A DNA stretch of 64,000 bases from an uncultured delta proteobacterium. Its GTDB lineage: Bacteria > Desulfobacterota > Binatia > UBA9968. The stretch is from the NCBI GenBank assembly GCA_963755715.1, contig CAVWLW010000001.1:116040-180039 (forward strand). Reading direction: 5' to 3'. Under the pieces are notes generated by a model. That model worked only from the letters and a program-made list of their open reading frames with translations, did no database searches and was not told the DNA's origin. The translations under genes and the position numbers were made by a program. This document shows, one piece after another, positions 20,513 to 44,847 of this stretch (the first letter of the stretch is position 1; each line of letters opens with the position of its first letter).

Positions 20513-21415
20513 ATGGCGAAAGAACCGATCATAGAATCCGAAGGCGCCGCCCTTGACGCGGTCTTGGGAGAACTGCAAAGCGAGCACGCGGTAAAGGAAA
20601 TCAGCGGCTGGGAAACTGGCTTTGTGAACTTGAGCCGCGCCTTGGACGGCATGCGGCCGGGGCTTTACCTATTCATCGGACCACCCGCAAGCGGCAAAAC
20701 CGCCTTCGCCAAACAGCTCCTCGATCAAACCGCCATGCACAGCCGGGTGACGGGAATGTATTTTAGCTTCGCGGAAACCAAGAAAGAATTGCGCATAAGA
20801 ACGCTCGCGCGCTTGAGCGGGCTGGATCAACGCGAGATCCGTCGCGGCAGCGCTTATCTGCTGCACTGGTACGGTGTGCCGCGATTAGCCGGCAGTGAAG
20901 CTAGCGACCTGCCGCCGAGTTGGGAAAAACTGAAACGCTCGGCCGAAGACGCCAAGAGCTGGCTCGACTTGAGCTACCTGATCGAGTGTCAACGCGGCAC
21001 GACCGTGCAGGCGATCGAAGCGCAAATTACCCACAATCGCGCGCGCAGCGGCTCAGAGCAAATGATGATTGTTATCGACGATTGCCAGCGGCTCGGTGGC
21101 GCCGATCAACCGTTGGACATGCGCTTGCCGCTTGTCGCCGAGCAGCTACAAGAAATCGCCGTGAGCCTCAACATGCCTGTGTGGGCCGTGTGGCCGAGTC
21201 TTGACGCCGGAGGCATGGCTGGGGAAGCGTGGCGCGAGAAAGTCGCGAGCCCGGACGTAATCTTGGTGCTGGAACAAGACCGTGAACGCACCAGGAAACT
21301 GACCGAACCCAATCAGGCGATCATTTTGCACGTCGTAAAAAACCGCGGCGGTGAAAAAGGTCGACTTGCTTTCGATTTTTTTCCGGCGTTTTCAAGATTC
21401 ACTGAAGCACCATAG
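20513..21415 (+). CDS. stand-alone DnaB-like C-terminal (RecA-fold) ATPase domain protein
   Basis: GWETGF..L, Walker A GPPASGKT, IVIDDCQ, VVKNRGG; no N-terminal DnaB domain. Confidence 0.8.
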   Translation: MAKEPIIESEGAALDAVLGELQSEHAVKEISGWETGFVNLSRALDGMRPGLYLFIGPPASGKTAFAKQLLDQTAMHSRVTGMYFSFAETKKELRIRTLARLSGLDQREIRRGSAYLLHWYGVPRLAGSEASDLPPSWEKLKRSAEDAKSWLDLSYLIECQRGTTVQAIEAQITHNRARSGSEQMMIVIDDCQRLGGADQPLDMRLPLVAEQLQEIAVSLNMPVWAVWPSLDAGGMAGEAWREKVASPDVILVLEQDRERTRKLTEPNQAIILHVVKNRGGEKGRLAFDFFPAFSRFTEAP

Positions 21416-21418
21416 CGG

Positions 21419-22164
21419 CTAAGATTCCCAGCGATAGAGTTGGATTGTAGCGGGCTCGACCCTCGTATACCAACGCTCCCTCATAATCGGCGACGACGTT
21501 CAATTCGATCAATGACCAGCCCGGTACGTTGGCGTCGATCCGCGCCTGTTCGCCGGCTTGCGGCGAGGCCTATGTTTACCTCATCCAAGTCGCCCGATAG
21601 GCCGGTGCCCTTCGCTTTAAGGAACGCTTCCTTGCTCGTCCAACATTTATAAAACGCTTGGCGGCGCAGGTGCGCCGGCAGGGCGCGCAGCGCGGCTACC
21701 TCGCCGGCGGTAAAAAATCGCTCGGCGACTTCATCGAAGGCAAAATCCGCGTTGACAAACTCGACGTCGATACCGACTTCACGAGAACGAGCTACGGCCA
21801 GTAAGGCCACGCCGTGAGAATGAGAAAGGTTGAAGGCAACTCGGCTTTCCGCCTGGGGTGCGCCTAGTTTTGGTTTGCCGTGGCCGCCGAGGTCGAACTG
21901 CAAGTTTCCGGGGAGAGTCTCTGTATATTGCGCCAAGATCGAGCGCAAAGCGGCGTGTGCGACCGTGAATAGCAAACGATCTTTGGCAAACTTGAACCTA
22001 TCGGCGCGAGCCTGTTCTGCAGCCGATAGCAGAGCGGCGTATGCGCCTAAGTTGTCGGCGGCGGTTTCCGCCGCCTCAATCAGCCAAACATGGATTTCGT
22101 TTGCATCCAAAAGGAGACCGGCAGGGGGCGAGCGCCAAACGGATTTGAAAGATTGGTTCGGCAC
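21419..22164 (-). CDS. Sfp-type 4'-phosphopantetheinyl transferase (C-terminal frameshifts)
   Basis: HGKP, FNLSHS, VGIDVE, WTSKEAFLKAKGTGL. Confidence 0.9.
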
Positions 22165-22449: not shown

Positions 22450-22764
22450 TCAGGCGAAATCTTGGTGTGGCGCGATCCCTGTCACAATCACTTTATCGCC
22501 TTCCCGAATGATTTGAAGATCGCACGGGCCGTGGAACAAAATCATCGTGCGGGGATGTTCGTAAACGGTTGTTTTATGGGGAATCTCTTCGATGTAAACG
22601 TCGAACATGCGGCCTGCCGGCAAATTGACGGTCTGAGTGTGCATTAAATCGCCTTCGAAGAAAACTTCGATCCAGTTGCGATTCTCGGTAACCGCGAGAA
22701 TGAGACCGGCGGCGTTCTTAATCGTCGCGATCAACTCCTCGCCTTCGATCGTTTGCGCCGCCAC
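22450..22764 (-). CDS. hypothetical protein (104 aa)
   Basis: starts 12 nt after the CoA ligase stop; acidic, beta-rich. Confidence 0.7.
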   Translation of the reverse strand: MAAQTIEGEELIATIKNAAGLILAVTENRNWIEVFFEGDLMHTQTVNLPAGRMFDVYIEEIPHKTTVYEHPRTMILFHGPCDLQIIREGDKVIVTGIAPHQDFA

Positions 22765-22776
22765 GGCTAGAATCCG

Positions 22777-24306
22777 TTAATTCGCCAGCAAGGTTTGCGC
22801 GTCGCGAATCGATTTGCCGGACGAAGTGCGCGGCAGTGAATCGCGCACGACGATTTTATCCGGCACTTTGAAATTGGCCAAATTAGCGCGCAAAAACGCC
22901 AACAACTCTTTTTCACTGAGGTGCGCGCCGGGACGGGGCACGACGGCGGCACCGATCACCTGGCCGCGTTTGCCATCCGGTATTGCGAAGACGATATTTT
23001 CCTGCACGCCTGGATAAGTATAGATCAGGTTTTCCACTTCAGCGGGGTAAACGTTGAGCCCGCCGGTGATGATCATGTCGTCGCGCCTGCCGAGATGGTA
23101 ATAGTAGCCGTCCGTGCCGCGTTTGCCGACGTCGCCGGTATAAAGCCAGCCGTCGCGAACCCGCTCGGCGGTGGCGTCGGGCCGGCGAAAATAACCTTTC
23201 ATCACGTGAGGACCGCGGGTGATGATCTCGCCGGGCTCATCGACGCCCAGCTCATTGCCTGCCTGGTCGATGATCTTAACTTCGACACCCGGCACGGCCC
23301 GGCCGATGCTGCCCACTTTTGCTTCGGCCTGGTTCGGCTCTACCAAAGTGATTAGCGGAGAGGTCTCCGTCAAGCCGTAACCTTGAATGACTTTGATATG
23401 CGGCTGGGCAGATTGAAAGGCACGCAAGAGCGGCAGCGGAATGCTGGTGCCCATCATCGCGGCGATTTTCACGCTGCTGGTATCATAGCTCGCCAGATTT
23501 TTTACTCCCATCAAGAGCTGGAAGACGATCGGCACGCTTTCAAAAACACTGACCCGGTATTTTTGGATGCCCTCCAAAAGCGTGATCGGATTGATCTGAT
23601 CGAAGATCACCAGCGTGTAACCGCGCTCGGCTAGTTCGTTGCAGACGACTGGCCCGACGATATGCGACATCGGCAAGATACAGCCGCGGATCGTCGATGT
23701 GTCGGTGATGCCGAACTCGCCCATCACGCGCGGATACTGGTTGAGATTGCGATAACTCAACACCACGCCTTTGGGCTCGCCGGTGGTGCCCGATGTGTAG
23801 AGAATCAATGCGTCGTCGTCGGCTTGCAAGTTTGGCGCAGACACCGTCCCGGCCGATGTCGCGCGCCGGCTTTCAAAGCTGCGCGTGCCGGTGCCGTTGA
23901 CAATCCAGGTCGGGATCGACGTGAGTGTTTTAAAATTTTCTTCGACTTCCGAAAATAACTGGCTGTGCACGATCAGCAAACTCAGATCGGCATCGCTTAA
24001 AACCCCTTGCAGCTCTTTTCCCTTGAGCCGGGCGTCGAGGATGACCGTCACCGCGCCGATTTTCTGCGTCGCGTAATAACTGAGCGGTATCGCCGTGGAA
24101 TTGGGTAGCAAAAGGCCGACCCGGTCGCCCCGGCGGATGCCTTCCCTTTGCAGATGCGAGGCCAACGCCTGCGCCTGGTGATTCAACTCGCCAAACGTTA
24201 GTTGCTCCTCCTTCGCGATAATCGCGGTTTTTTGCGCTTGACGAGCGGCGGTTTTTTCCAGAACTTCAGCCGCAAAAAAACCTACTGAATCGGTATGGTT
24301 TGCCAT
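22777..24306 (-). CDS. AMP-dependent acyl-CoA ligase (long-chain fatty acid-CoA ligase-like)
   Basis: YTSGTTGEPKG, QGYGLTE, GWLYTGD, GGLNVYPAEVE, LPRTSSGK. Confidence 0.92.
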   Translation of the reverse strand: MANHTDSVGFFAAEVLEKTAARQAQKTAIIAKEEQLTFGELNHQAQALASHLQREGIRRGDRVGLLLPNSTAIPLSYYATQKIGAVTVILDARLKGKELQGVLSDADLSLLIVHSQLFSEVEENFKTLTSIPTWIVNGTGTRSFESRRATSAGTVSAPNLQADDDALILYTSGTTGEPKGVVLSYRNLNQYPRVMGEFGITDTSTIRGCILPMSHIVGPVVCNELAERGYTLVIFDQINPITLLEGIQKYRVSVFESVPIVFQLLMGVKNLASYDTSSVKIAAMMGTSIPLPLLRAFQSAQPHIKVIQGYGLTETSPLITLVEPNQAEAKVGSIGRAVPGVEVKIIDQAGNELGVDEPGEIITRGPHVMKGYFRRPDATAERVRDGWLYTGDVGKRGTDGYYYHLGRRDDMIITGGLNVYPAEVENLIYTYPGVQENIVFAIPDGKRGQVIGAAVVPRPGAHLSEKELLAFLRANLANFKVPDKIVVRDSLPRTSSGKSIRDAQTLLAN

Positions 24307-25281
24307 ATTGCAAATGCCCTCTGAAACGGTTTGTACCAGCGCGACAATTGCGCCAGCTCGCCTCGCTGTAATTTTAATTTTCCTTGCTGGGTCGCCATGA
24401 ACGCGTCGATGCGATTGTTAAACACCGCGCGCCACCACTCCGCTTGACCGCCGATCAAGAACTCACCGCCGTCACCGGGATTGAGTTCGGTAATCGTGCC
24501 ATCGCGAAATTGCACCGTCCAAGTCTTGCCGCCCTCTTCGAGTAAGAGCGTCAACGAGGTCGTCAAACTCGTGGCGGCGCCATCGGCACGAAATTGCGAA
24601 TCCTGATTGGCGCTATCGACCAATGCTTGCATGTGTTCTTGGGAGAATAGCGCATAGCCTTTTCCCGATTGCACCCCCACCCCAGTCGGCTTTTCTGTCG
24701 AATCAGCCGGCGGCGCCCCGCCTTTGCCTACCCGCTCTTTAAAAAATTGGCAATGCACCGCCTCTTCGAGCAAATCGGTGATCAGAAAGGCTTCCTGAAA
24801 ATCCTTGCCGATAGCGACGGTGCCGTGTCCTTTGATAATCACCACCGGATGGTATTTGAGCGCTTCGACGACCGCCTGCGGCCGAGTCACCGTCGGCGTG
24901 TCCTGGGGAATGATCGGCACCTCGCCGATCGTATATTTCTCTTCATAGCTAAGCGGCACGAAGCTTTCATGCGTCAGCGAAAAAGCGAGCACCATGGGCG
25001 GGTGGACGTGGACGATCGCCTGCGCGTCGGTGCCGGCGTACACGGCCAGATGCATCGGCGTTTCACTCGACGCCCGCTGCGCCGTGTTGATCGGTTTGCC
25101 GTTCTGATCGAGCGCCACCAAATCCTTGGGCGAAAGAAAACCGAGCGGCGCATGCTGTCCGGTAATCATGAAACATTTCTTGTCGAGCCGGCAGCTTAGA
25201 TTACCGCCCCAGCCGCTGACCAGCCGACGCTCAAAGAGCAGCTTGCCCCAGCCGAATCATTTCGCGTTCGAGGGTAGTCAT
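24282..25281 (-). CDS. class II aldolase/adducin domain fused to SCP2-like lipid-binding domain; frameshift in G-run near 25248
   Basis: GWGGNLSCR, ASSETPMH, HVHP, KGHG metal ligands; C-terminal WTVQFRDG...FMATQQGKLKLQRGEL resembles SCP2. Confidence 0.85.
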
Positions 25282-25284
25282 CGA

Positions 25285-26802
25285 TTAATTCTTGAACAGC
25301 GACCAGGGCACTACTTCCGATTCAAGCGGACGAACGGCAACACCCGCAGGGCAGATATCCTTGCCCAAGAAGGTCGAAACATCGTTGTCGGGAGTCGAAG
25401 CTTTGCATGCGTCGCCGTTGAAAAGCTCAATGGCAACGCCGTGCAGGCGCGCCAACTGAACGGCGAGCAACGACCCGCAAATCCCGCTTGGCCCCTCCGC
25501 CGCTAGGTTTTCGTAAAACAGACACAGCTTGCGAATCTCGCCTTGGGCGAAAAGCGTTCCCATGACATTGTCGGAGATCAGGGTCGTCGGCGCGCGACGC
25601 TTCAATAGCTCGCGCGCGACCACCTGCGCGCCCCAGAGCTGCGGCCGCATCTCGGGCACGAGAATGCTTGCGGCTTGCTCCGCCTTCAGGGCGCTCAGCA
25701 AAAAGGCATATTGATTCTTCGGCGGCACGCCGTAAATCAGAATATATTTTCCGTCTTCGCTTGCCTTTTCCGGATCGGGCGTTGCCGCGATCTGATACTT
25801 GCGGCGAAAAGTTTCCGGCGTGTAGAGATCATCGAAGCCGATCAGATGGGTAACCAGTCGTGCCGGCGTGACATCGAACGACGGATAACGCGCGTTGAGA
25901 ACGGGATCGTCAACGACGGTGATCGGCTGTCCCTGAAACTTCAGCAACTCTGCTACTGGGCGTTCCTCAATCGGCACATCGATGCCTCGTTCCAACGAGC
26001 GCGGATCCTGCACCAATGCATGAAACGGTACGCCGTACTCGCGCGCCATGAGCGCCAGCGGATAGGTGCCGACCTTATTGATGATATCGCCGTTTTGCGC
26101 CACGCGATCGGCGCCGACGATCACCGCGTTGACTTCACCCGCAGCCATTACCTGTGCCACCGCGGCATCGGGAATCAGCGACACCGCAACGCCCGCTTGA
26201 GCAAGCTCCCAAGCAGTCAAGCGCGCGCCCTGCAGGTAGGGCCGCGTTTCCGTGGCGACCACGGAAAACTCTTTGCTCAACTCGCGACAACACTGAGCGA
26301 CGGCAACCAGCTCACCGCTCACGTTGCAATGCGTCAGCACGCGCGCCGGATTCGGCAATATGGCTGCCGCCCGGCGCGCCCGGGCTTGCCGCGCGTGCAT
26401 GATCTGCTGGCCGAATTCGCGCGCCTGCCTGCCGATAGTCTCGCCGGCGGCGGCGCCGGCAGGCAATCGGACGAACCATTCGTCAAAGAAACACTCGAGG
26501 CCGCGAAAATCGAAGGTCGGCCGGGCGGCGCAAAATTGCTGCGTCATTTCTGCGATGCGCGCCCGCAGCGCGGCGGCATCGCTGTGCGTATCACGTTGCG
26601 CCAACAGCGCGCCGCTATAAAGAAAGGCCAGCACCTGCCCGAAGGCGCGGGTTTTCATTTCGCGCACGGCGTCGAGCGCTTGCTCGACTTCGCTGATTTG
26701 GATGTAGTGGATTTCCTCGGGCACGAGGGTCTCGTCGAGAATCTTAAACCCGTCGCCATCCCACAACACCGGTTCGAACAACGGACTCGGATTGACATTC
26801 AT
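25285..26802 (-). CDS. mtnA: MtnA-like ribose-1-phosphate isomerase (eIF2B family) with extra duplicated C-terminal domain
   Basis: ARPT, LTHCN, ETRPYLQGARLTAWEL, VGADR, NKVGTY, FDVTP; second copy EMRPQLWGAQVVAREL. Confidence 0.85.
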   Translation of the reverse strand: MNVNPSPLFEPVLWDGDGFKILDETLVPEEIHYIQISEVEQALDAVREMKTRAFGQVLAFLYSGALLAQRDTHSDAAALRARIAEMTQQFCAARPTFDFRGLECFFDEWFVRLPAGAAAGETIGRQAREFGQQIMHARQARARRAAAILPNPARVLTHCNVSGELVAVAQCCRELSKEFSVVATETRPYLQGARLTAWELAQAGVAVSLIPDAAVAQVMAAGEVNAVIVGADRVAQNGDIINKVGTYPLALMAREYGVPFHALVQDPRSLERGIDVPIEERPVAELLKFQGQPITVVDDPVLNARYPSFDVTPARLVTHLIGFDDLYTPETFRRKYQIAATPDPEKASEDGKYILIYGVPPKNQYAFLLSALKAEQAASILVPEMRPQLWGAQVVARELLKRRAPTTLISDNVMGTLFAQGEIRKLCLFYENLAAEGPSGICGSLLAVQLARLHGVAIELFNGDACKASTPDNDVSTFLGKDICPAGVAVRPLESEVVPWSLFKN

Positions 26803-26828
26803 AACTTTAACGGGACGCGCGTGGTGGT

Positions 26829-27563
26829 TTACAGATATTGCAACGCCTTGCGCGCCACATCGATGGTTTTTTTCTCCGCCTCGAAGAACTGCGGATCGCG
26901 AAAACCAAACTTGCCGTGGAGACATTCATCGGAGACCGCTAGCACGGCACCGGCCTTCTTGCCGCGCACCTGCGCGATCGTCAGAAAGGTCGACGTCACC
27001 ATGTCGATGCTCGAGAGGTTTTGCTCGCTCAATTGCTGAATCAGCTCCGGAGTTTCCTGAAACAGCGCGTCGGTGGTGAAGATCCAGCCGAGATGATAGC
27101 GCACGTTCAAACTGTCGGCGGCCTTCTTGAGAGCGTCGACAATCTCCGGGTGAGCAATAGTGGAAAAATTCTCCGCGACATAGTAGCGCGAGGTGCCTTC
27201 GCCGCGCAGCGCCCCAGTAACGATCACCAGATCGCCGATGCTTACGTTTTCCTGCAGCGAGCCGCAACTGCCGACGCGGATCAATGCCTCAGCGCCGGCG
27301 CCGCAGAGAATTTCAGTGGTGATCGCCGTATCCGGCGCGTAACGGCCGCCATTGCCGACCGTGACGCGCTTGCCGTCGAGCGCCCCCGTGTACATCTCGT
27401 AATCGAGAAAAGTGAAATTCTTTTGCGGATTTTCCAGCAATCGTAAAATCGCTTCGCTGCGTTCTTTAGGACCGGGGATCAGCGCGTAAGCGCCGAGGGA
27501 GTCCGGCTTGAGACCGAGCATCGACAGCATGCGTTGCGGCGTAAAGTGTGCTTCTTTAAGCAT
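26829..27563 (-). CDS. nucleoside phosphorylase (PNP/UDP family), divergent
   Basis: LIPG...R, IRVGSCGSL, GEGTSRYY, TTDALFQE; EME motif altered to DMV. Confidence 0.88.
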   Translation of the reverse strand: MLKEAHFTPQRMLSMLGLKPDSLGAYALIPGPKERSEAILRLLENPQKNFTFLDYEMYTGALDGKRVTVGNGGRYAPDTAITTEILCGAGAEALIRVGSCGSLQENVSIGDLVIVTGALRGEGTSRYYVAENFSTIAHPEIVDALKKAADSLNVRYHLGWIFTTDALFQETPELIQQLSEQNLSSIDMVTSTFLTIAQVRGKKAGAVLAVSDECLHGKFGFRDPQFFEAEKKTIDVARKALQYL

Positions 27564-27565
27564 GA

Positions 27566-28789
27566 TCAGAGCGCCTGATCGATAAATTCGAGCAAATCTT
27601 GCGTCGGCAACGCAGGTTCTTTGAGGTCAGCGAAAGACCGCCCGCAGAGCGCGCTCGAGGTGAGCACGACTTCGGCGCCGGTGGCCGCGGCCTCACGCAA
27701 GCGATCGGCGGCGTTCCACTGCGCCAGCTCGGGATCCGCTTCGGGCACTCCACCCCCGCCGCCGCAGCACCAGCTCCAGCGTCGATTACGTTCCATCTCG
27801 ACTAGCTCGAGGCCGGGAATCGCGCGAAGAATTCTTCGCGGCGGCTCATAAACGCCGCAGCCGCGGCCGAGATGGCAGGAGTCGTGGTAGGTGACTTTCT
27901 TCTTTATCGGCTTGGTAAATTTTAGAGAACCCGAATCGAGCAGCCGGGCGACATATTCAATGCCATGCAGCGCTTCAAATTGGCCAGCGCCGGTCTTGGC
28001 GTATTCGCGCCAGATTCGTTGACAACTGCCGCAGGCGACAACCACTTGGGTAATACCGCCGGCAGCGATTGTCGCCAGATTATTTTCTTTCAAGCGTTCG
28101 TACTCGCGACGGAAGCCGAGGTCGAAGGCATAAAGGCCGCAGCATTTTTCCTCGCTGCCGAGAAAGACAAAATCTTCGCCCGCCTTTTGCATGATCTTGG
28201 CGAGCGCGACCGCGCCGCTCCGGCCACTCGAACGATCCGCCGAACAGCCGGCGAAAAGCAAGGTGCGCGCGTTGGACTCGCCCAGTTTCTTGAGCCCAAG
28301 CCCCTCGGCCCAAGCGCCCCGGTCGACCTTTGGCTGCGCCCACGGGTTGTCATGTTGGCGCAAGCCTTCGTAAATCGGTCGATGCGGCTCGATCGGACCT
28401 TCCTTCTCGGTGATCTCCTCGCGCATGGCCACGGTGATATCCCAGGGTCCATAACCGTCGTCGCGCACGCCGCAAAGTTCCTGGCACATCAGGCAATTCG
28501 TGCAGGCGTAGATGACTTCTTTGAGCTCAGGCGTAATCGGATCCAGACCGTGAAAAACCCGCTGCGCCATCAGCCAGCGCGACTTCGGCGTGTGACGCTG
28601 GAAGCGATAAAACTCATAGGGTGGACACTTCTCTTTCGGTCCCACCACATCTTCCATTGGATTGGCCGGACCATGGCCGTAACAGGAGCCGCACAGAACG
28701 CAGCCGCTGCTGCGCTCGCTCAAATCTTTGGCGTAGAGCCATCTTTTGACCCGTTCGAGCCCGAGCAATTTTTTCTCTTCGTTTTTCAT
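27566..28789 (-). CDS. Fe-S oxidoreductase with 4Fe-4S dicluster and two CCG domains (HdrD/GlcF/GlpC-like)
   Basis: CVLCGSC..CP, CTNCLMCQELC, KCCG, ACGSC, YHDSCHLGR, WCCGGGGG. Confidence 0.9.
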   Translation of the reverse strand: MKNEEKKLLGLERVKRWLYAKDLSERSSGCVLCGSCYGHGPANPMEDVVGPKEKCPPYEFYRFQRHTPKSRWLMAQRVFHGLDPITPELKEVIYACTNCLMCQELCGVRDDGYGPWDITVAMREEITEKEGPIEPHRPIYEGLRQHDNPWAQPKVDRGAWAEGLGLKKLGESNARTLLFAGCSADRSSGRSGAVALAKIMQKAGEDFVFLGSEEKCCGLYAFDLGFRREYERLKENNLATIAAGGITQVVVACGSCQRIWREYAKTGAGQFEALHGIEYVARLLDSGSLKFTKPIKKKVTYHDSCHLGRGCGVYEPPRRILRAIPGLELVEMERNRRWSWCCGGGGGVPEADPELAQWNAADRLREAAATGAEVVLTSSALCGRSFADLKEPALPTQDLLEFIDQAL

Positions 28790-28812
28790 CGAACCGCGTT
28801 CAAGCAAAATTA

Positions 28813-28855
28813 GTTAAAGCCTTAACCTTTATAGCTCGCCATTTCGAACTGTCAA
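28813..28855 (-). promoter_or_regulatory. sigma-70 promoter plus palindromic operator for the Fe-S/phosphorylase operon
   Basis: TTGACA-N16-TATAAA (28855-28828) followed by GTTAA-N4-TTAAC (28813-28826). Confidence 0.65.
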
Positions 28856-28966
28856 TAATTGTCGTTCAAGCGCGCTGCCAGATTGCAAGTCGGCGAAGCG
28901 GCGCGAACGGGGTGGTTTAGGCTCGATCCGCTGGAAGTCAGTCGGAAAACGCCGTCGGCGCTTTAA

Positions 28967-29419
28967 TCAATTCGTCAACGATTCTTGATTGAGCTTGCGC
29001 AACAGCGCGGAGAGTTCTTTCTGTTCTGGACCAGCGAGTATTGTGAAGATTTTCGAGACGCTCGATTCAAAAAGGGGAATCGTACTCTTGTACACCTTGG
29101 CCCCTTTGTCGGTCAGCACCACATGCACGACGCGGCGGTCATTTTCGTCGCGCTTGCGCGTGACCAGCTTTTTCTCTTCGAGACGGTCGACAATGCCGGT
29201 GAGATTGCTGACGGTGACCATCATTTTTGCGCCGATCTCGCCGAAGGGCAGTCCACCGGCGTAGCCGATCGTCGCCAACACGTAAAACTGTGGCGACGTG
29301 AGGCCAACTTTGTCTAAATCAGCTTCCAGTTTTTTGTGCGATTGCAGGCTGAAGCGAAGAAAACGGATCCAAAGGCTAGTTGCATAAGATGTGAAGAACG
29401 GACGTTTGTAAACTCTCAC
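28967..29419 (-). CDS. MarR-family transcriptional regulator
   Basis: GLTSPQFYVL, NLTGIVDRLEEKKLV.R...DRR...V.LTDKG; GTG start inferred. Confidence 0.9.
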   Translation of the reverse strand: MRVYKRPFFTSYATSLWIRFLRFSLQSHKKLEADLDKVGLTSPQFYVLATIGYAGGLPFGEIGAKMMVTVSNLTGIVDRLEEKKLVTRKRDENDRRVVHVVLTDKGAKVYKSTIPLFESSVSKIFTILAGPEQKELSALLRKLNQESLTN

Positions 29420-29573
29420 GCTTTGCACTTTATTCGCACGGCCACTAAAAAGCAACTTCGTTGGCGCGAGCGCGCGTTCAATAATTATGGACCGGCCCAT
29501 TTCATTGCAAGCCGTGCGACCGAGTGTTAATGAGTGCAAAAAGAGATCGCTGGCGAGGAACTGATAAAGCGCG

Positions 29574-30305
29574 ATGAGACTGCATATTCTCGGTTGCGGC
29601 GACGCCTTCGGCAGCGGCGGACGCAACCAAAGTGGCTACCTGATCGAGGCCGCTGACCGGTTGTTTCTCTTGGACTGCGGTCCAACTACGTTGCCGGCGA
29701 TGAAGCGCGCCGCCATCGAACCGCGCCGTCTGGATGCGATCCTGCTAAGCCATCTGCACGGCGATCACTTCGGCGGCGTGCCATTTTTTTTAATCGAATA
29801 TCTTTATCACAAACCACCGCACAGCCCACTAACGATCGCCGGTCCGCCCGGAACAGAAGAACGGGTCCGCCAACTGTTCGACCTGATGTACGGCGGCGCC
29901 AAGGAAACGCCGTTCCTCCGTTTCCAAGTTTTGACTCCCGAAAAACTGCAGAGCGTCAAGGACATCGAGGTTTTTCCATTTCGCGTGCCGCATCAAATGA
30001 ATGACATTTCACTCGGGCTGAAGGTCGCTTACCAAGGCAAGCAGATCCTTTTTTCCGGCGATTCGGCATGGACCGATTTGTTCATCGAGCACGCACGCGA
30101 CACCGATCTGTTTCTGTGCGAGTGTTCTTTTTATCACGAGGAGCCGGGCATGCACGTGAATTACCAGATCCTGCGGTCAAACCTGGCGCGCTTGGCATGC
30201 AAGAAGCTTGTGCTCACCCATCTCGGCGAGGACATGCTCGCGCGCGCCGAGAATTTGGACGCAAGGCTGACCGTGGCAAAAGATGGAATGGTGATCGAGG
30301 TCTAA
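29574..30305 (+). CDS. MBL-fold metallohydrolase (RNase Z-like)
   Basis: LGCGDAFGSGGR, SHLHGDHFGG, FSGDS, LTHLG. Confidence 0.9.
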   Translation: MRLHILGCGDAFGSGGRNQSGYLIEAADRLFLLDCGPTTLPAMKRAAIEPRRLDAILLSHLHGDHFGGVPFFLIEYLYHKPPHSPLTIAGPPGTEERVRQLFDLMYGGAKETPFLRFQVLTPEKLQSVKDIEVFPFRVPHQMNDISLGLKVAYQGKQILFSGDSAWTDLFIEHARDTDLFLCECSFYHEEPGMHVNYQILRSNLARLACKKLVLTHLGEDMLARAENLDARLTVAKDGMVIEV

Positions 30306-43851: not shown

Positions 43852-44847
43852 TCATGATCGGCGTTCTTTAACCTCTTTCAGCTTGAGTCCCGGCTGCACA
43901 AAATCAGGAAACATCGGCCGGAGATTTTTGCTCGGCGGTCCTTGCGGTGAAAGCCGACACCACTGATCGGGATAGCGCCGCACCATGTCTTCCAAATGAC
44001 GAGTAAACAGGGCCAGATTTGCAGCAACATCCTCCTGCAGGTCTCCTGTCTTGACGAGATCGATTTCAGGGCTGATACGAAGGGTCAGACGATCCTCAGC
44101 GTCCCGCGTGACACACATAGGAACAACCGCCGCGCCCGCGCGTAAAGCCAGGGTCACGGGACCACGGCGAACATAGACAGCGGAACCCAAAAACTGCGTG
44201 TTTACTTTCCCAGATTTAAACACATCCGGGAGGAGAAGAACCACTTCGTTCCGCCTTAATGCGCCGAGGATTTGTCGGGCCGCCTGCCTGCGCGGCTTAG
44301 CCGATATCGTTTTTACCCCAGCCTTCGCTCTGTAGCCGTCAAGCAAACGGGCTAATCTTTGGTCTGGCGGGTGCTTGACTAAAATGCTGAAGGGGTATCC
44401 CGCCGCGGCAAGACGGGGACCAATCATAGTAAAATTTCCTAAATGAGCGCCGAGCGCGATCACCCCCTTGCCCTTTTCCAAAGCCCGTTTCAAATACTCC
44501 TCGCCCTCAATAGCAACGCTGGCACATATCATGTCTCTGGAGGTATAAAGCGTGCAGGCAGTCTCATAAAGTCCCTGGACAAAATTCCTCCAGGCCATAC
44601 GAGCCAGAGTCTTTCTCCTCTCCACCGGTAAGAATTCGTCGCTCAAAGCCATGGAGACATTCTCTTCCATCAGTTTTCGGTATGTCCATAAAATAGCGAA
44701 AGTCAGGCGGACGGTCGCCGACGTCATGAGGACGAGCAGGCGGTGAGGGATCCTCGGAACGAGGAAGATAATTGCCCTCAGGCAATATTCCGCTGTTCGG
44801 TACAGTAACCAATAGAGAAATTTCTTGAAGGGAAAACGGTCCTTCAT
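43852..44847 (-). CDS. LpxL/HtrB-family (lysophospholipid) acyltransferase, C-terminus possibly damaged
   Basis: GKGVIALGAHLGNF, FLG, GP..LA, RRYPDQW. Confidence 0.8.
   Translation of the reverse strand: MKDRFPFKKFLYWLLYRTAEYCLRAIIFLVPRIPHRLLVLMTSATVRLTFAILWTYRKLMEENVSMALSDEFLPVERRKTLARMAWRNFVQGLYETACTLYTSRDMICASVAIEGEEYLKRALEKGKGVIALGAHLGNFTMIGPRLAAAGYPFSILVKHPPDQRLARLLDGYRAKAGVKTISAKPRRQAARQILGALRRNEVVLLLPDVFKSGKVNTQFLGSAVYVRRGPVTLALRAGAAVVPMCVTRDAEDRLTLRISPEIDLVKTGDLQEDVAANLALFTRHLEDMVRRYPDQWCRLSPQGPPSKNLRPMFPDFVQPGLKLKEVKERRS

Follow-up and report, generated by a model that had tools for sequence, protein, structure and literature searches.

A conserved gene cluster of uncultured Binatia links a putative specialised dihydroxyacetone phosphate shunt and an aldolase–SCP2 fusion to an acyl-CoA ligase

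The window analysed here is a 64-kb stretch of contig CAVWLW010000001.1 from an uncultured delta proteobacterium of the class Binatia (assembly GCA_963755715.1, positions 116,040 to 180,039). It carries a gene cluster in which three enzymes of the dihydroxyacetone phosphate (DHAP) shunt type are accompanied by an acyl-CoA ligase, an iron-sulfur protein and a transcriptional regulator. The operon genes are all located on the minus strand, between positions 29626 and 21481. The first is a MarR-family regulator (28967..29626; Pfam MarR 62.1 bits). Its open reading frame (ORF) runs from a TTG at 29626; the true start is likely at about 29500, which makes the gene shorter than the ORF. After a spacer of about 160 bases follows a 413-aa iron-sulfur protein with CCG and Fer4 domains (27566..28807; CCG 100 bits, Fer4_8 29.1 bits), referred to here as the CCG protein. 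The next genes code for a PNP_UDP_1 phosphorylase of the NP-I family (26829..27563; 114.9 bits, above the cut-off), an IF-2B/MtnA-like isomerase with a partial second domain (25285..26802; IF-2B 188.5 bits), a class II zinc aldolase fused to a sterol carrier protein 2 domain (aldolase::SCP2, 24282..25281, with a frame broken in the assembly; Aldolase_II 107.7 bits) and an AMP-forming acyl-CoA ligase (22777..24306; AMP-binding 284.4 bits, AMP-binding_C 63.8 bits). A 104-aa all-beta orphan is encoded at 22450..22764. An Sfp/HetI-type 4'-phosphopantetheinyl transferase (PPTase, 21481..22164; ACPS 61.5 bits; HetI 174 bits, below the cut-off) lies 285 bases downstream of the orphan, and its membership in the operon is uncertain.

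The spacing was read from the sequence: −4 bases between the CCG and phosphorylase genes, 26 between phosphorylase and isomerase, 3 between isomerase and aldolase, −25 between aldolase and ligase and 12 between ligase and the 104-aa ORF. These values assume an isomerase start at 26802 and an aldolase start at 25281. An earlier reading of the letters alone (the original prediction) had described tightly packed or overlapping minus-strand genes with marR upstream, and the ORFs, the Pfam and NCBIfam profile scores and the gaps confirm all of them.

The gene linkage is conserved in three groups of genomes. Counts refer to eligible loci, those with enough flanking sequence. The own-family set comprised 16 species-level contigs of metagenome-assembled genomes (MAGs; titled Binatia, Deltaproteobacteria and others) with 67–98% aldolase identity. 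They share the order CCG gene, phosphorylase, isomerase, aldolase::SCP2 and ligase. Aldolase and ligase are adjacent in 16/16 loci, and the isomerase (15/15), the phosphorylase (12/12), the CCG gene (11/11) and the upstream MarR (11/11) are always present. The 104-aa ORF and the PPTase each occur in 11/13; the PPTase is absent from the clusters of other lineages. A seventeenth locus with 27% identity, restricted to the aldolase domain, had none of the other genes.

A metagenome set was obtained with six distant seeds, which gave 433 relatives. The best 80 of 433 were kept, and the genes of their loci were grouped by clustering of all ORFs. The order in this set is ligase, phosphorylase, isomerase, a small isomerase-like ORF and aldolase::SCP2. 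The phosphorylase was found in 52/52, the isomerase in 57/57 and the ligase in 44/45 loci, and an aldehyde dehydrogenase gene directly follows the aldolase gene in 52/52. The sole organism names on the metagenome side of the family were Candidatus Omnitrophota or Omnitrophica (7 of 120 rows).

The third group derived from a sample of 151 genomes of the GTDB phylum of the window, in which the fusion occurred in 8 genomes of other classes. Six of the 8 loci were analysed (G007 and G026 were left out). Five of the six keep phosphorylase, isomerase and aldolase::SCP2, and the dehydrogenase follows the aldolase in three. The sixth, L129, has aldolase::SCP2 and the ligase; its other genes, in place of phosphorylase and isomerase, code for a zinc alcohol dehydrogenase, an aldolase of the DeoC type, a member of the phosphohexomutase family and an LpxL-type acyltransferase. 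A locus of a sister family, L132, encodes MarR, phosphorylase, isomerase with extension, a 197-aa aldolase and ligase, followed by a convergent LpxL-type acyltransferase; it has neither the CCG gene nor SCP2. The LpxL-type acyltransferases adjoin the ligase in both L129 and L132, and MarR is present in both. The core of phosphorylase, isomerase, aldolase and ligase (the module) recurs in the three groups in different gene orders. The synteny survey proposed in the original prediction therefore shows conservation in the own family, in other classes of the phylum and in the metagenome set, and the predicted tie of the three enzymes to an acyl-CoA ligase extends from direct adjacency in the family to the other gene order of the metagenome loci.

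Phosphorylase and isomerase are divergent members of their families. The best solved relative of the phosphorylase is the hexameric 5'-methylthioadenosine (MTA) phosphorylase of S. solfataricus (SsMTAP, 1jds; E 2.6e-26). The NCBIfam equivalogs were not reached; the top model was uridine phosphorylase with 135.8 bits at a cut-off of 280. The protein is not an equivalog of HpnG either (24.9 bits, cut-off 187). The E-M-E of aligned SsMTAP, which we take to be the sugar-binding (ribose) motif, is replaced by D-M-V. This replacement, noticed before in the window, is invariant in seven of seven module phosphorylases from three lineages. A V-S-D stretch, presumably of the purine type, is retained.

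The isomerase scored 228.6 bits with TIGR00512, below the cut-off of 279 for an MtnA equivalog. Its catalytic Cys159 and Asp232 are invariant. All module isomerases have two deletions in common, defined relative to the canonical MtnA of the own genome: 9 residues after MKTR (the RGAPAIG stretch) and 7 after CNVS. Residues 1–330 are MtnA-like and are followed by about 170 aa that resemble part of another IF-2B domain; the C-terminal 180 aa gave an additional, weak IF-2B match (25.6 bits). The duplicated domain of the original prediction is present in this partial form. In the family of the window the extension is fused to the isomerase; other lineages encode it separately, in an ORF of about 150 aa.

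The genomes also have regular copies of these enzymes. The canonical MtnA of the own genome reaches 449 bits with TIGR00512. A canonical MtnA is present in 5/5 other-class module genomes, with PF01008 scores of 300–324 bits versus 117–134 bits for the module copy. Better-scoring PNP_UDP_1 paralogues coexist in the own genome and in 5/5 other-class module genomes. The module is therefore an extra, divergent set, and the shared motif changes beside a canonical MtnA support the earlier view of the trio as a modified, specialised copy of DHAP-shunt enzymes.

The aldolase has the metal triad of histidines and the catalytic glutamate of class II aldolases; G26, N27, S29, E73, H91, H93 and H152 are invariant among 37 homologues. 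An AlphaFold model of aldolase::SCP2 based on these 37 homologues had a pLDDT of 92. Residues 1–189 match fuculose-1-phosphate aldolase (2fk5_A, Z 27.3) and residues 209–330 match sterol carrier protein 2 (2cx7_B, Z 17.9, root-mean-square deviation 1.8 Å over 120 residues); other SCP2 structures gave Z 7–10. The Pfam SCP2 score of the window copy is 18.7 bits, below the cut-off of 21.3. In a distant branch of the fusion family, which reaches down to 26% identity, PF02036 was precomputed in about half of the relatives (57/120). Judged by the modelled fold, the SCP2 fusion seen in the original prediction is real despite the Pfam score below the cut-off.

Relative to a MAG contig of 98% identity, the aldolase gene of this assembly carries one additional G at about 25252–25255 (codon ~10), which disrupts its reading frame. 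The additional base is also missing from the contigs of one RNA run and of two soil DNA runs, which belong to two studies. The break is the reason why the listed ORF starts at 25169 and has 295 aa; homologues have 323–342 aa. The missing N-terminus, including the G-N-x-S phosphate motif, lies upstream in another frame. The extra G is an assembly error or a strain variant of a gene that is normally intact. The SCP2-less aldolase of L132 indicates that the SCP2 domain is not indispensable. A 131-aa ORF after the L132 ligase was considered as a detached SCP2 and rejected (hhalign probability 0.1, no Pfam hit). In the own genome, another class II aldolase paralogue is located within about 2 kb of the best match (33%) to the module dehydrogenase (C18:15695-19424).

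The ligase contains both the AMP-binding and the C-terminal domain. Its nearest structures are feruloyl/fatty-acyl-CoA synthetases (8wev/8weu) and FadD13 (3r44), with 241–264 bits, versus only 149 bits for acetyl-CoA synthetase. It scored 420 bits with PRK06187, below the cut-off, and no equivalog model was reached. The module dehydrogenase is canonical and non-acylating (PF00171 571 bits, BADH model 550 bits). Its position after the aldolase in all 52 distant loci backs the oxidation of the aldehyde to an acid that the original prediction had postulated.

Lipid-type genes surround the module in other lineages. Five of six other-class loci encode an MMPL/HAE3 (COG1033) pump, a LolA-like/DUF1329 protein and a DUF1302 outer-membrane protein. 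The composition matches that of AmeABCD, a monoterpene exporter, and the resistance-nodulation-division (RND) family of such pumps includes the hopanoid pump HpnN; this HAE3 RND cassette type exports hydrophobic compounds (excerpt of PMC6394551). A DUF1302/DUF1329 pair of Pseudomonas had fitness links to fatty-ester use or outer-membrane biogenesis (excerpt of bioRxiv 10.1101/2020.07.04.188060). The transport genes, whose role in export is a prediction, are missing from the cluster of the window. The metagenome clusters encode two FabF-like ketosynthases with an acyl carrier protein (ACP) in a ketosynthase–ketosynthase–ACP arrangement (33/33). The SCP2 fusion, the FadD13-like ligase, the transport genes and the ketosynthase–ACP genes all favour a hydrophobic substituent, as predicted.

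The known DHAP shunt (MtnP or MtnN plus MtnK/DrdK, MtnA/DrdI and Ald2/DrdA) draws on the same enzyme superfamilies as the module, and its three reaction types are probably shared. The likeness comprises an NP-I phosphorylase, an IF-2B/MtnA protein with catalytic Cys and Asp, and a zinc or manganese class II aldolase with E73 and three His. The shunt follows the same logic and yields DHAP and an aldehyde bearing the 5' substituent (excerpt of PMC6079011). The module differs from it as a set of separate paralogues with D-M-V, two deletions plus a half-domain, and SCP2, and its isomerase is below the MtnA cut-off. Its further associates are lipid genes and the genes of an aldehyde dehydrogenase, of the FadD13-like ligase and of a B12-binding radical S-adenosylmethionine (SAM) enzyme.

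Our preferred reading, built on the observed gene content, folds, catalytic residues, conserved linkage and co-occurrence, is tentative and just short of an even chance: the operon would be a specialised DHAP-shunt paralogue that trims a hydrophobic 5'-substituted deoxyadenosine to DHAP and an aldehyde, which is converted to an acid and a CoA ester. The pathway may start with the phosphorolytic removal of the base from a 5'-substituted 5'-deoxyadenosine, yielding a substituted ribose 1-phosphate and adenine. The MtnA-like isomerase with its extra half-domain would produce the substituted ribulose 1-phosphate. Cleavage by the zinc class II aldolase would yield DHAP and an aldehyde, R-CH2-CHO, carrying the 5' substituent. 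At this step the polar head would be lost, and the fused SCP2 domain may hold the now water-insoluble aldehyde. Oxidation to R-CH2-COOH could be catalysed by the canonical dehydrogenase that is encoded next to the aldolase in most lineages. The FadD13-like ligase, acting after the oxidation, would form R-CH2-CO-CoA, feeding envelope-lipid or polyketide-type metabolism. The substrate would most likely be made by the B12-binding radical SAM enzyme, encoded in the cluster in other lineages and unlinked in the class of the window. This order is the most economical because it links all conserved enzymes product to substrate. The placement of SCP2 where the intermediate would lose its polar head is the strongest hint that R is hydrophobic.

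Aldol cleavage is uphill, and class II aldolase equilibria favour condensation (excerpt of PMC6079011). The downstream dehydrogenase and ligase would therefore pull the reaction. The same equilibria are a point for a reverse, biosynthetic direction, in which a hydrophobic aldehyde delivered by SCP2 is condensed with DHAP, the product is isomerised to the aldose 1-phosphate and the phosphorylase attaches a base. The envelope would receive a lipid nucleoside or a sugar phosphate with a long chain. Phosphorylases are reversible, and lipid export genes and acyltransferases adjoin the module. Nevertheless, this direction is improbable: the essentially irreversible aldehyde dehydrogenase beside the aldolase (52/52) consumes aldehydes, the annotated clusters have no conserved reductase for acyl-CoA or carboxylates, and the forward order connects all five enzymes product to substrate.

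The CCG protein contains two [4Fe-4S]-type motifs and two CCG domains. Its best NCBIfam match is TfrB (138 bits, below the cut-off), and the best solved relative is the mycobacterial EtfD (9ojn_A, E 7.9e-26), within chain residues 407–713 of the soluble region. This region of EtfD (9OJN) has the same two [4Fe-4S] motifs and two CCG domains, homologous to HdrBC/HdrD (excerpt of PMC13083937). Unlike EtfD and HdrD, the 413-aa protein has no membrane or haem domain, and neither such a module nor an electron-transferring flavoprotein (ETF) partner was found among the operon ORFs. The CCG gene accompanies the module only in the family of the window and is absent from every other version. By likeness to EtfD/HdrD, the protein is perhaps an electron-transfer partner; the role of aldehyde oxidiser given to it in the original prediction is not upheld.

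A GlcF-like role of the CCG protein would suit plain nucleoside catabolism. A purine nucleoside would be degraded via ribose 1-phosphate and ribulose 1-phosphate to DHAP and glycolaldehyde, and further to glycolate, with the CCG protein as a glycolate-oxidase subunit. Weak matches point this way: the aldolase reached 56.6 bits with the haloarchaeal ribulose-1-phosphate aldolase model and the CCG protein 31.9 bits with GlcF. Both scores are far below the cut-offs of 300 and 333, GlcD/GlcE partners are missing, and the CCG protein is not part of the other module versions. Plain catabolism would also leave SCP2, the FadD13-like ligase, the radical SAM link and the lipid transport genes unexplained, and is very improbable.

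The partner overlooked in the original prediction, which had suggested a co-occurrence check with radical SAM genes in general, is one B12-binding radical SAM enzyme. Its gene is present in 39/42 metagenome loci. In five of six other-class loci, it abuts the phosphorylase gene or is placed between the genes for isomerase and phosphorylase. An unlinked orthologue of full length is encoded in the own genome (C21:27896-29374; 40% identity, E 3e-114). A class sample of 121 genomes was screened, in which one unpublished genome (G233) enters the tallies only. The module aldolase was found in nine: the own genome, 6/6 others of its family, and G193 and G227 from two sister families. The radical SAM orthologue was found in seven genomes, and all seven are among the nine with the module. 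This class-level co-occurrence is in line with the two other groups, where the genes are physical neighbours.

In the own genome, the radical SAM gene heads a tight row (C21:27896-33500; L124:11897-17568) with a short-chain dehydrogenase/reductase (SDR), an FAD_binding_4 oxidase, a TenA/haem-oxygenase-like protein and an O-methyltransferase. An ArnT-like glycosyltransferase and BacA are encoded upstream of the row. These neighbours were considered as parts of the system and rejected; none recurs near the module elsewhere, except for one weak SDR match.

A more specific form of the preferred reading concerns the origin of the substrate. The B12-binding radical SAM enzyme may form a C–C bond between the 5'-deoxyadenosyl group of SAM and a hydrophobic molecule, which could be an alkene, a polyene, an isoprenoid or an acyl chain. 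The module would strip adenine and, as DHAP, three ribose carbons from the adduct. The SAM ribose would donate a two-carbon carboxymethyl unit, and the resulting unusual acyl-CoA would prime or decorate envelope lipids or type-II-polyketide-synthase-like products in Omnitrophota, Binatia-type soil bacteria and relatives. This full sequence of events is possible, with clearly less than an even chance.

Radical SAM enzymes that join the adenosyl C5' to a hydrophobic or aromatic substrate are known from the pairs HpnH/HpnG (adenosylhopane to ribosylhopane) and MqnE/MqnB (aminofutalosine), in which an NP-I enzyme removes the base. HpnH and MqnE have no B12 domain. The ribose carbons are kept, in bacteriohopanetetrol and in the naphthoquinone ring, and DHAP is not released. 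A further difference is that the module does not co-occur with HpnH or squalene-hopene cyclase (SHC). The fluorometabolite pathway of Streptomyces cattleya comprises a fluorinase, the FlB phosphorylase, an isomerase, an aldolase and an aldehyde dehydrogenase and leads to fluoroacetate. To our knowledge, it is the sole route in which a purpose-made 5'-substituted 5'-deoxyadenosine is trimmed via phosphorylase, isomerase and aldolase and then oxidised. It shares the five-step logic with the proposal for the module. In contrast, the adduct of S. cattleya is made by a SAM_HAT/DUF62 fluorinase and not by a radical SAM enzyme, and SCP2, a CoA ligase and a lipid context are missing. Fluoroacetaldehyde is described in the literature as the precursor in this pathway. 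A search for SAM_HAT/DUF62 linked to the module gave a single SAM_HAT_N match in the own genome (C68:59835-60272), on another contig, and none among the annotated cluster families; the SAM_HAT family is common (8/14 control genomes).

The radical SAM enzyme may also release only 5'-deoxyadenosine or MTA, as a lipid-modifying methylase or similar enzyme. The module would then salvage the by-product, locally removing the inhibitor as adenine, DHAP and acetaldehyde or methylthioacetaldehyde. The aldehyde would be transformed to acetyl-CoA or methylthioacetyl-CoA, and SCP2 would merely tether the aldolase to a membrane or lipid-handling complex. The chemistry is established for phosphorylase/kinase–isomerase–aldolase clusters (excerpts of PMC6079011, PMC12632272 and PMC10986504). 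Tight clustering and co-occurrence with the radical SAM gene fit salvage as well, as do the SCP2-less variant and a dehydrogenase of the soluble small-aldehyde type (BADH/StyD/ExaC-like). Still, salvage is the less likely of the two readings in view of the canonical MtnA and better PNP_UDP_1 paralogues already in the genomes and of active-site motifs changed in phosphorylase and isomerase in all lineages. The SCP2 fusion is kept across three distant groups, the ligase scores 149 bits with the distant acetyl-CoA synthetase versus 264 with feruloyl/fatty-acyl types, and six genes heading a biosynthetic-looking cluster are a heavy investment. The divergent extra enzyme set, the FadD13-like ligase and the SCP2 argument are the reasons for weighting the adduct above salvage. 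Both an adenosylated product and plain 5'-deoxyadenosine fit the data as the module substrate.

Several observations weigh against the preferred reading of a trimmed adenosyl adduct. Two module genomes of the class sample are without the radical SAM gene, G157 (96% complete, 260 contigs) and G227 (95% complete); the module of G227 is a partial cluster at a contig end. Three of the 42 metagenome loci keep the module without the radical SAM gene. As kin are not independent, the co-occurrence within the class reduces to two or three lineages, and it is equally expected if the module only salvages a by-product. We know of no B12-binding radical SAM enzyme that attaches an adenosyl group to a substrate, and the known adenosylating enzymes, HpnH and MqnE, belong to the type without this domain. 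In the cluster itself, the aldolase gene is frameshifted in this assembly, and the sister-family locus L132 has the 197-aa SCP2-less aldolase in the same gene order. The family of the window is without an orthologue of the module dehydrogenase; the best match in the own genome has 33% identity and lies elsewhere in the genome.

A hopanoid link had been suggested in the original prediction. Adenosylhopane made by HpnH would be cleaved to DHAP and a C32 hopanal, which is oxidised to the acid and transformed to the CoA ester. The own genome encodes SHC and HpnH as well as an HpnG-like protein (169.8 bits, gene beside SHC), and the module includes a sterol-carrier-type domain. However, the hopanoid genes are located on another contig (C69) than the module and have their own HpnG-like phosphorylase. 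HpnH is present in 76 of the 121 class genomes and the module in nine, of which only two have HpnH. In the five other-class module genomes (93–100% complete), neither SHC at E ≤ 0.001 nor HpnH over the cut-off was found. Because of this distribution, adenosylhopane is not supported as the substrate, and its catabolism by the module is hardly probable at all. The hopanoid link would have carried geochemical weight. Of the original interpretation, the specialised shunt, the tie to the ligase, the oxidation and the hydrophobic substituent are retained, and adenosylhopane is dropped together with the CCG protein as oxidiser.

The HpnH proteins of the own genome (C69:150446-151402) and of G166 (C9:2621-3574) score about 540 bits; the other 74 score about 350–400, with G230 at 505. 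These two genomes are the only HpnH-positive ones in the family of the window, and their high scores may reflect a separately acquired hopanoid cluster. A second SCP2-linked aldolase system is encoded 2.4 kb from hpnH of the own genome (C69:153907-157890; L032:7905-11891, minus strand). It is a 1328-aa ORF that fuses an FGGY kinase, a D-2-hydroxyacid dehydrogenase, SCP2 (49 bits) and a class II aldolase. As a candidate cleaver of the hopanoid side chain it was rejected; of seven other class genomes with the fused form, only G197 has HpnH.

No description of the gene combination was found in the literature searched, supplementary files aside, in agreement with the earlier reading, in which it was not recognised as a described pathway. 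The findings point to a route, so far undescribed, by which an adenosine adduct is converted to a CoA ester of the fatty type. If the preferred reading is true, the DHAP shunt is more than a disposal of SAM by-products: equipped with separate enzyme paralogues and a lipid-carrier domain, it has been recruited for the last part of a radical SAM pathway in which the adenosyl group serves as a building block. B12-binding radical SAM enzymes would gain a new reaction class, and acyl-CoA starter units a new origin, in widespread uncultured bacteria of soil, sediment and groundwater. The chance that new radical SAM chemistry underlies the module is real. As salvage, the module would be the first cluster-encoded line dedicated to 5'-deoxyadenosine that extends to a CoA ester.

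Further genes of the metagenome clusters encode a 98-aa protein (40/41), an ApbA/PanE-type reductase (36/37), a PF04199 cyclase-type hydrolase (27/30) and a PadR regulator (35/40). These clusters additionally contain an MFS gene and one for an SRPBCC protein. The 104-aa protein of the window has no similarity to the 98-aa protein (E 2.0). It has 35 invariant columns among nine sequences, no family in Pfam or NCBIfam and no atlas neighbour. Its model is all-beta (pLDDT 72.7; best structural Z 4.1).

A promoter scan gave four promoter-like sites versus 3.2 ± 1.7 in shuffled sequences, with none in the spacer between marR and the CCG gene or upstream of marR. An inverted repeat is absent from this spacer, and upstream of marR the operator search gave one imperfect palindrome of 12 nt. 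The scan is at chance level and a clear operator repeat is missing; the single promoter/operator of the original prediction therefore stays an assumption, unlike its genes, SCP2 fusion and altered motif, which were recovered. RNA-library contigs (X15, X16) cover parts of the 104-aa gene, ligase, isomerase, phosphorylase, CCG gene and marR. They bridge no gene junction with at least 31 letters on each side and may stem from DNA carry-over; they are no proof of transcription or of an operon.

Near-identical DNA was detected in 14 soil-metagenome runs with at least half of the sampled words (20 holding rows, 12 studies). The marR–CCG spacer differs by indels from other soil contigs: a base is missing at 28930 in both DNA runs, and single-base insertions occur between 28805 and 28866 in the contigs of one DNA run. 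Elsewhere in the window, an LpxL-type lipid A acyltransferase homologue (43948-44829, minus strand) is 50% identical to the L132 copy and 35% to the L129 copy. A 300-aa DnaB_C/KaiC-like P-loop protein is encoded at 20513-21415 on the plus strand and is conserved beside the cluster in the family loci that reach that far.

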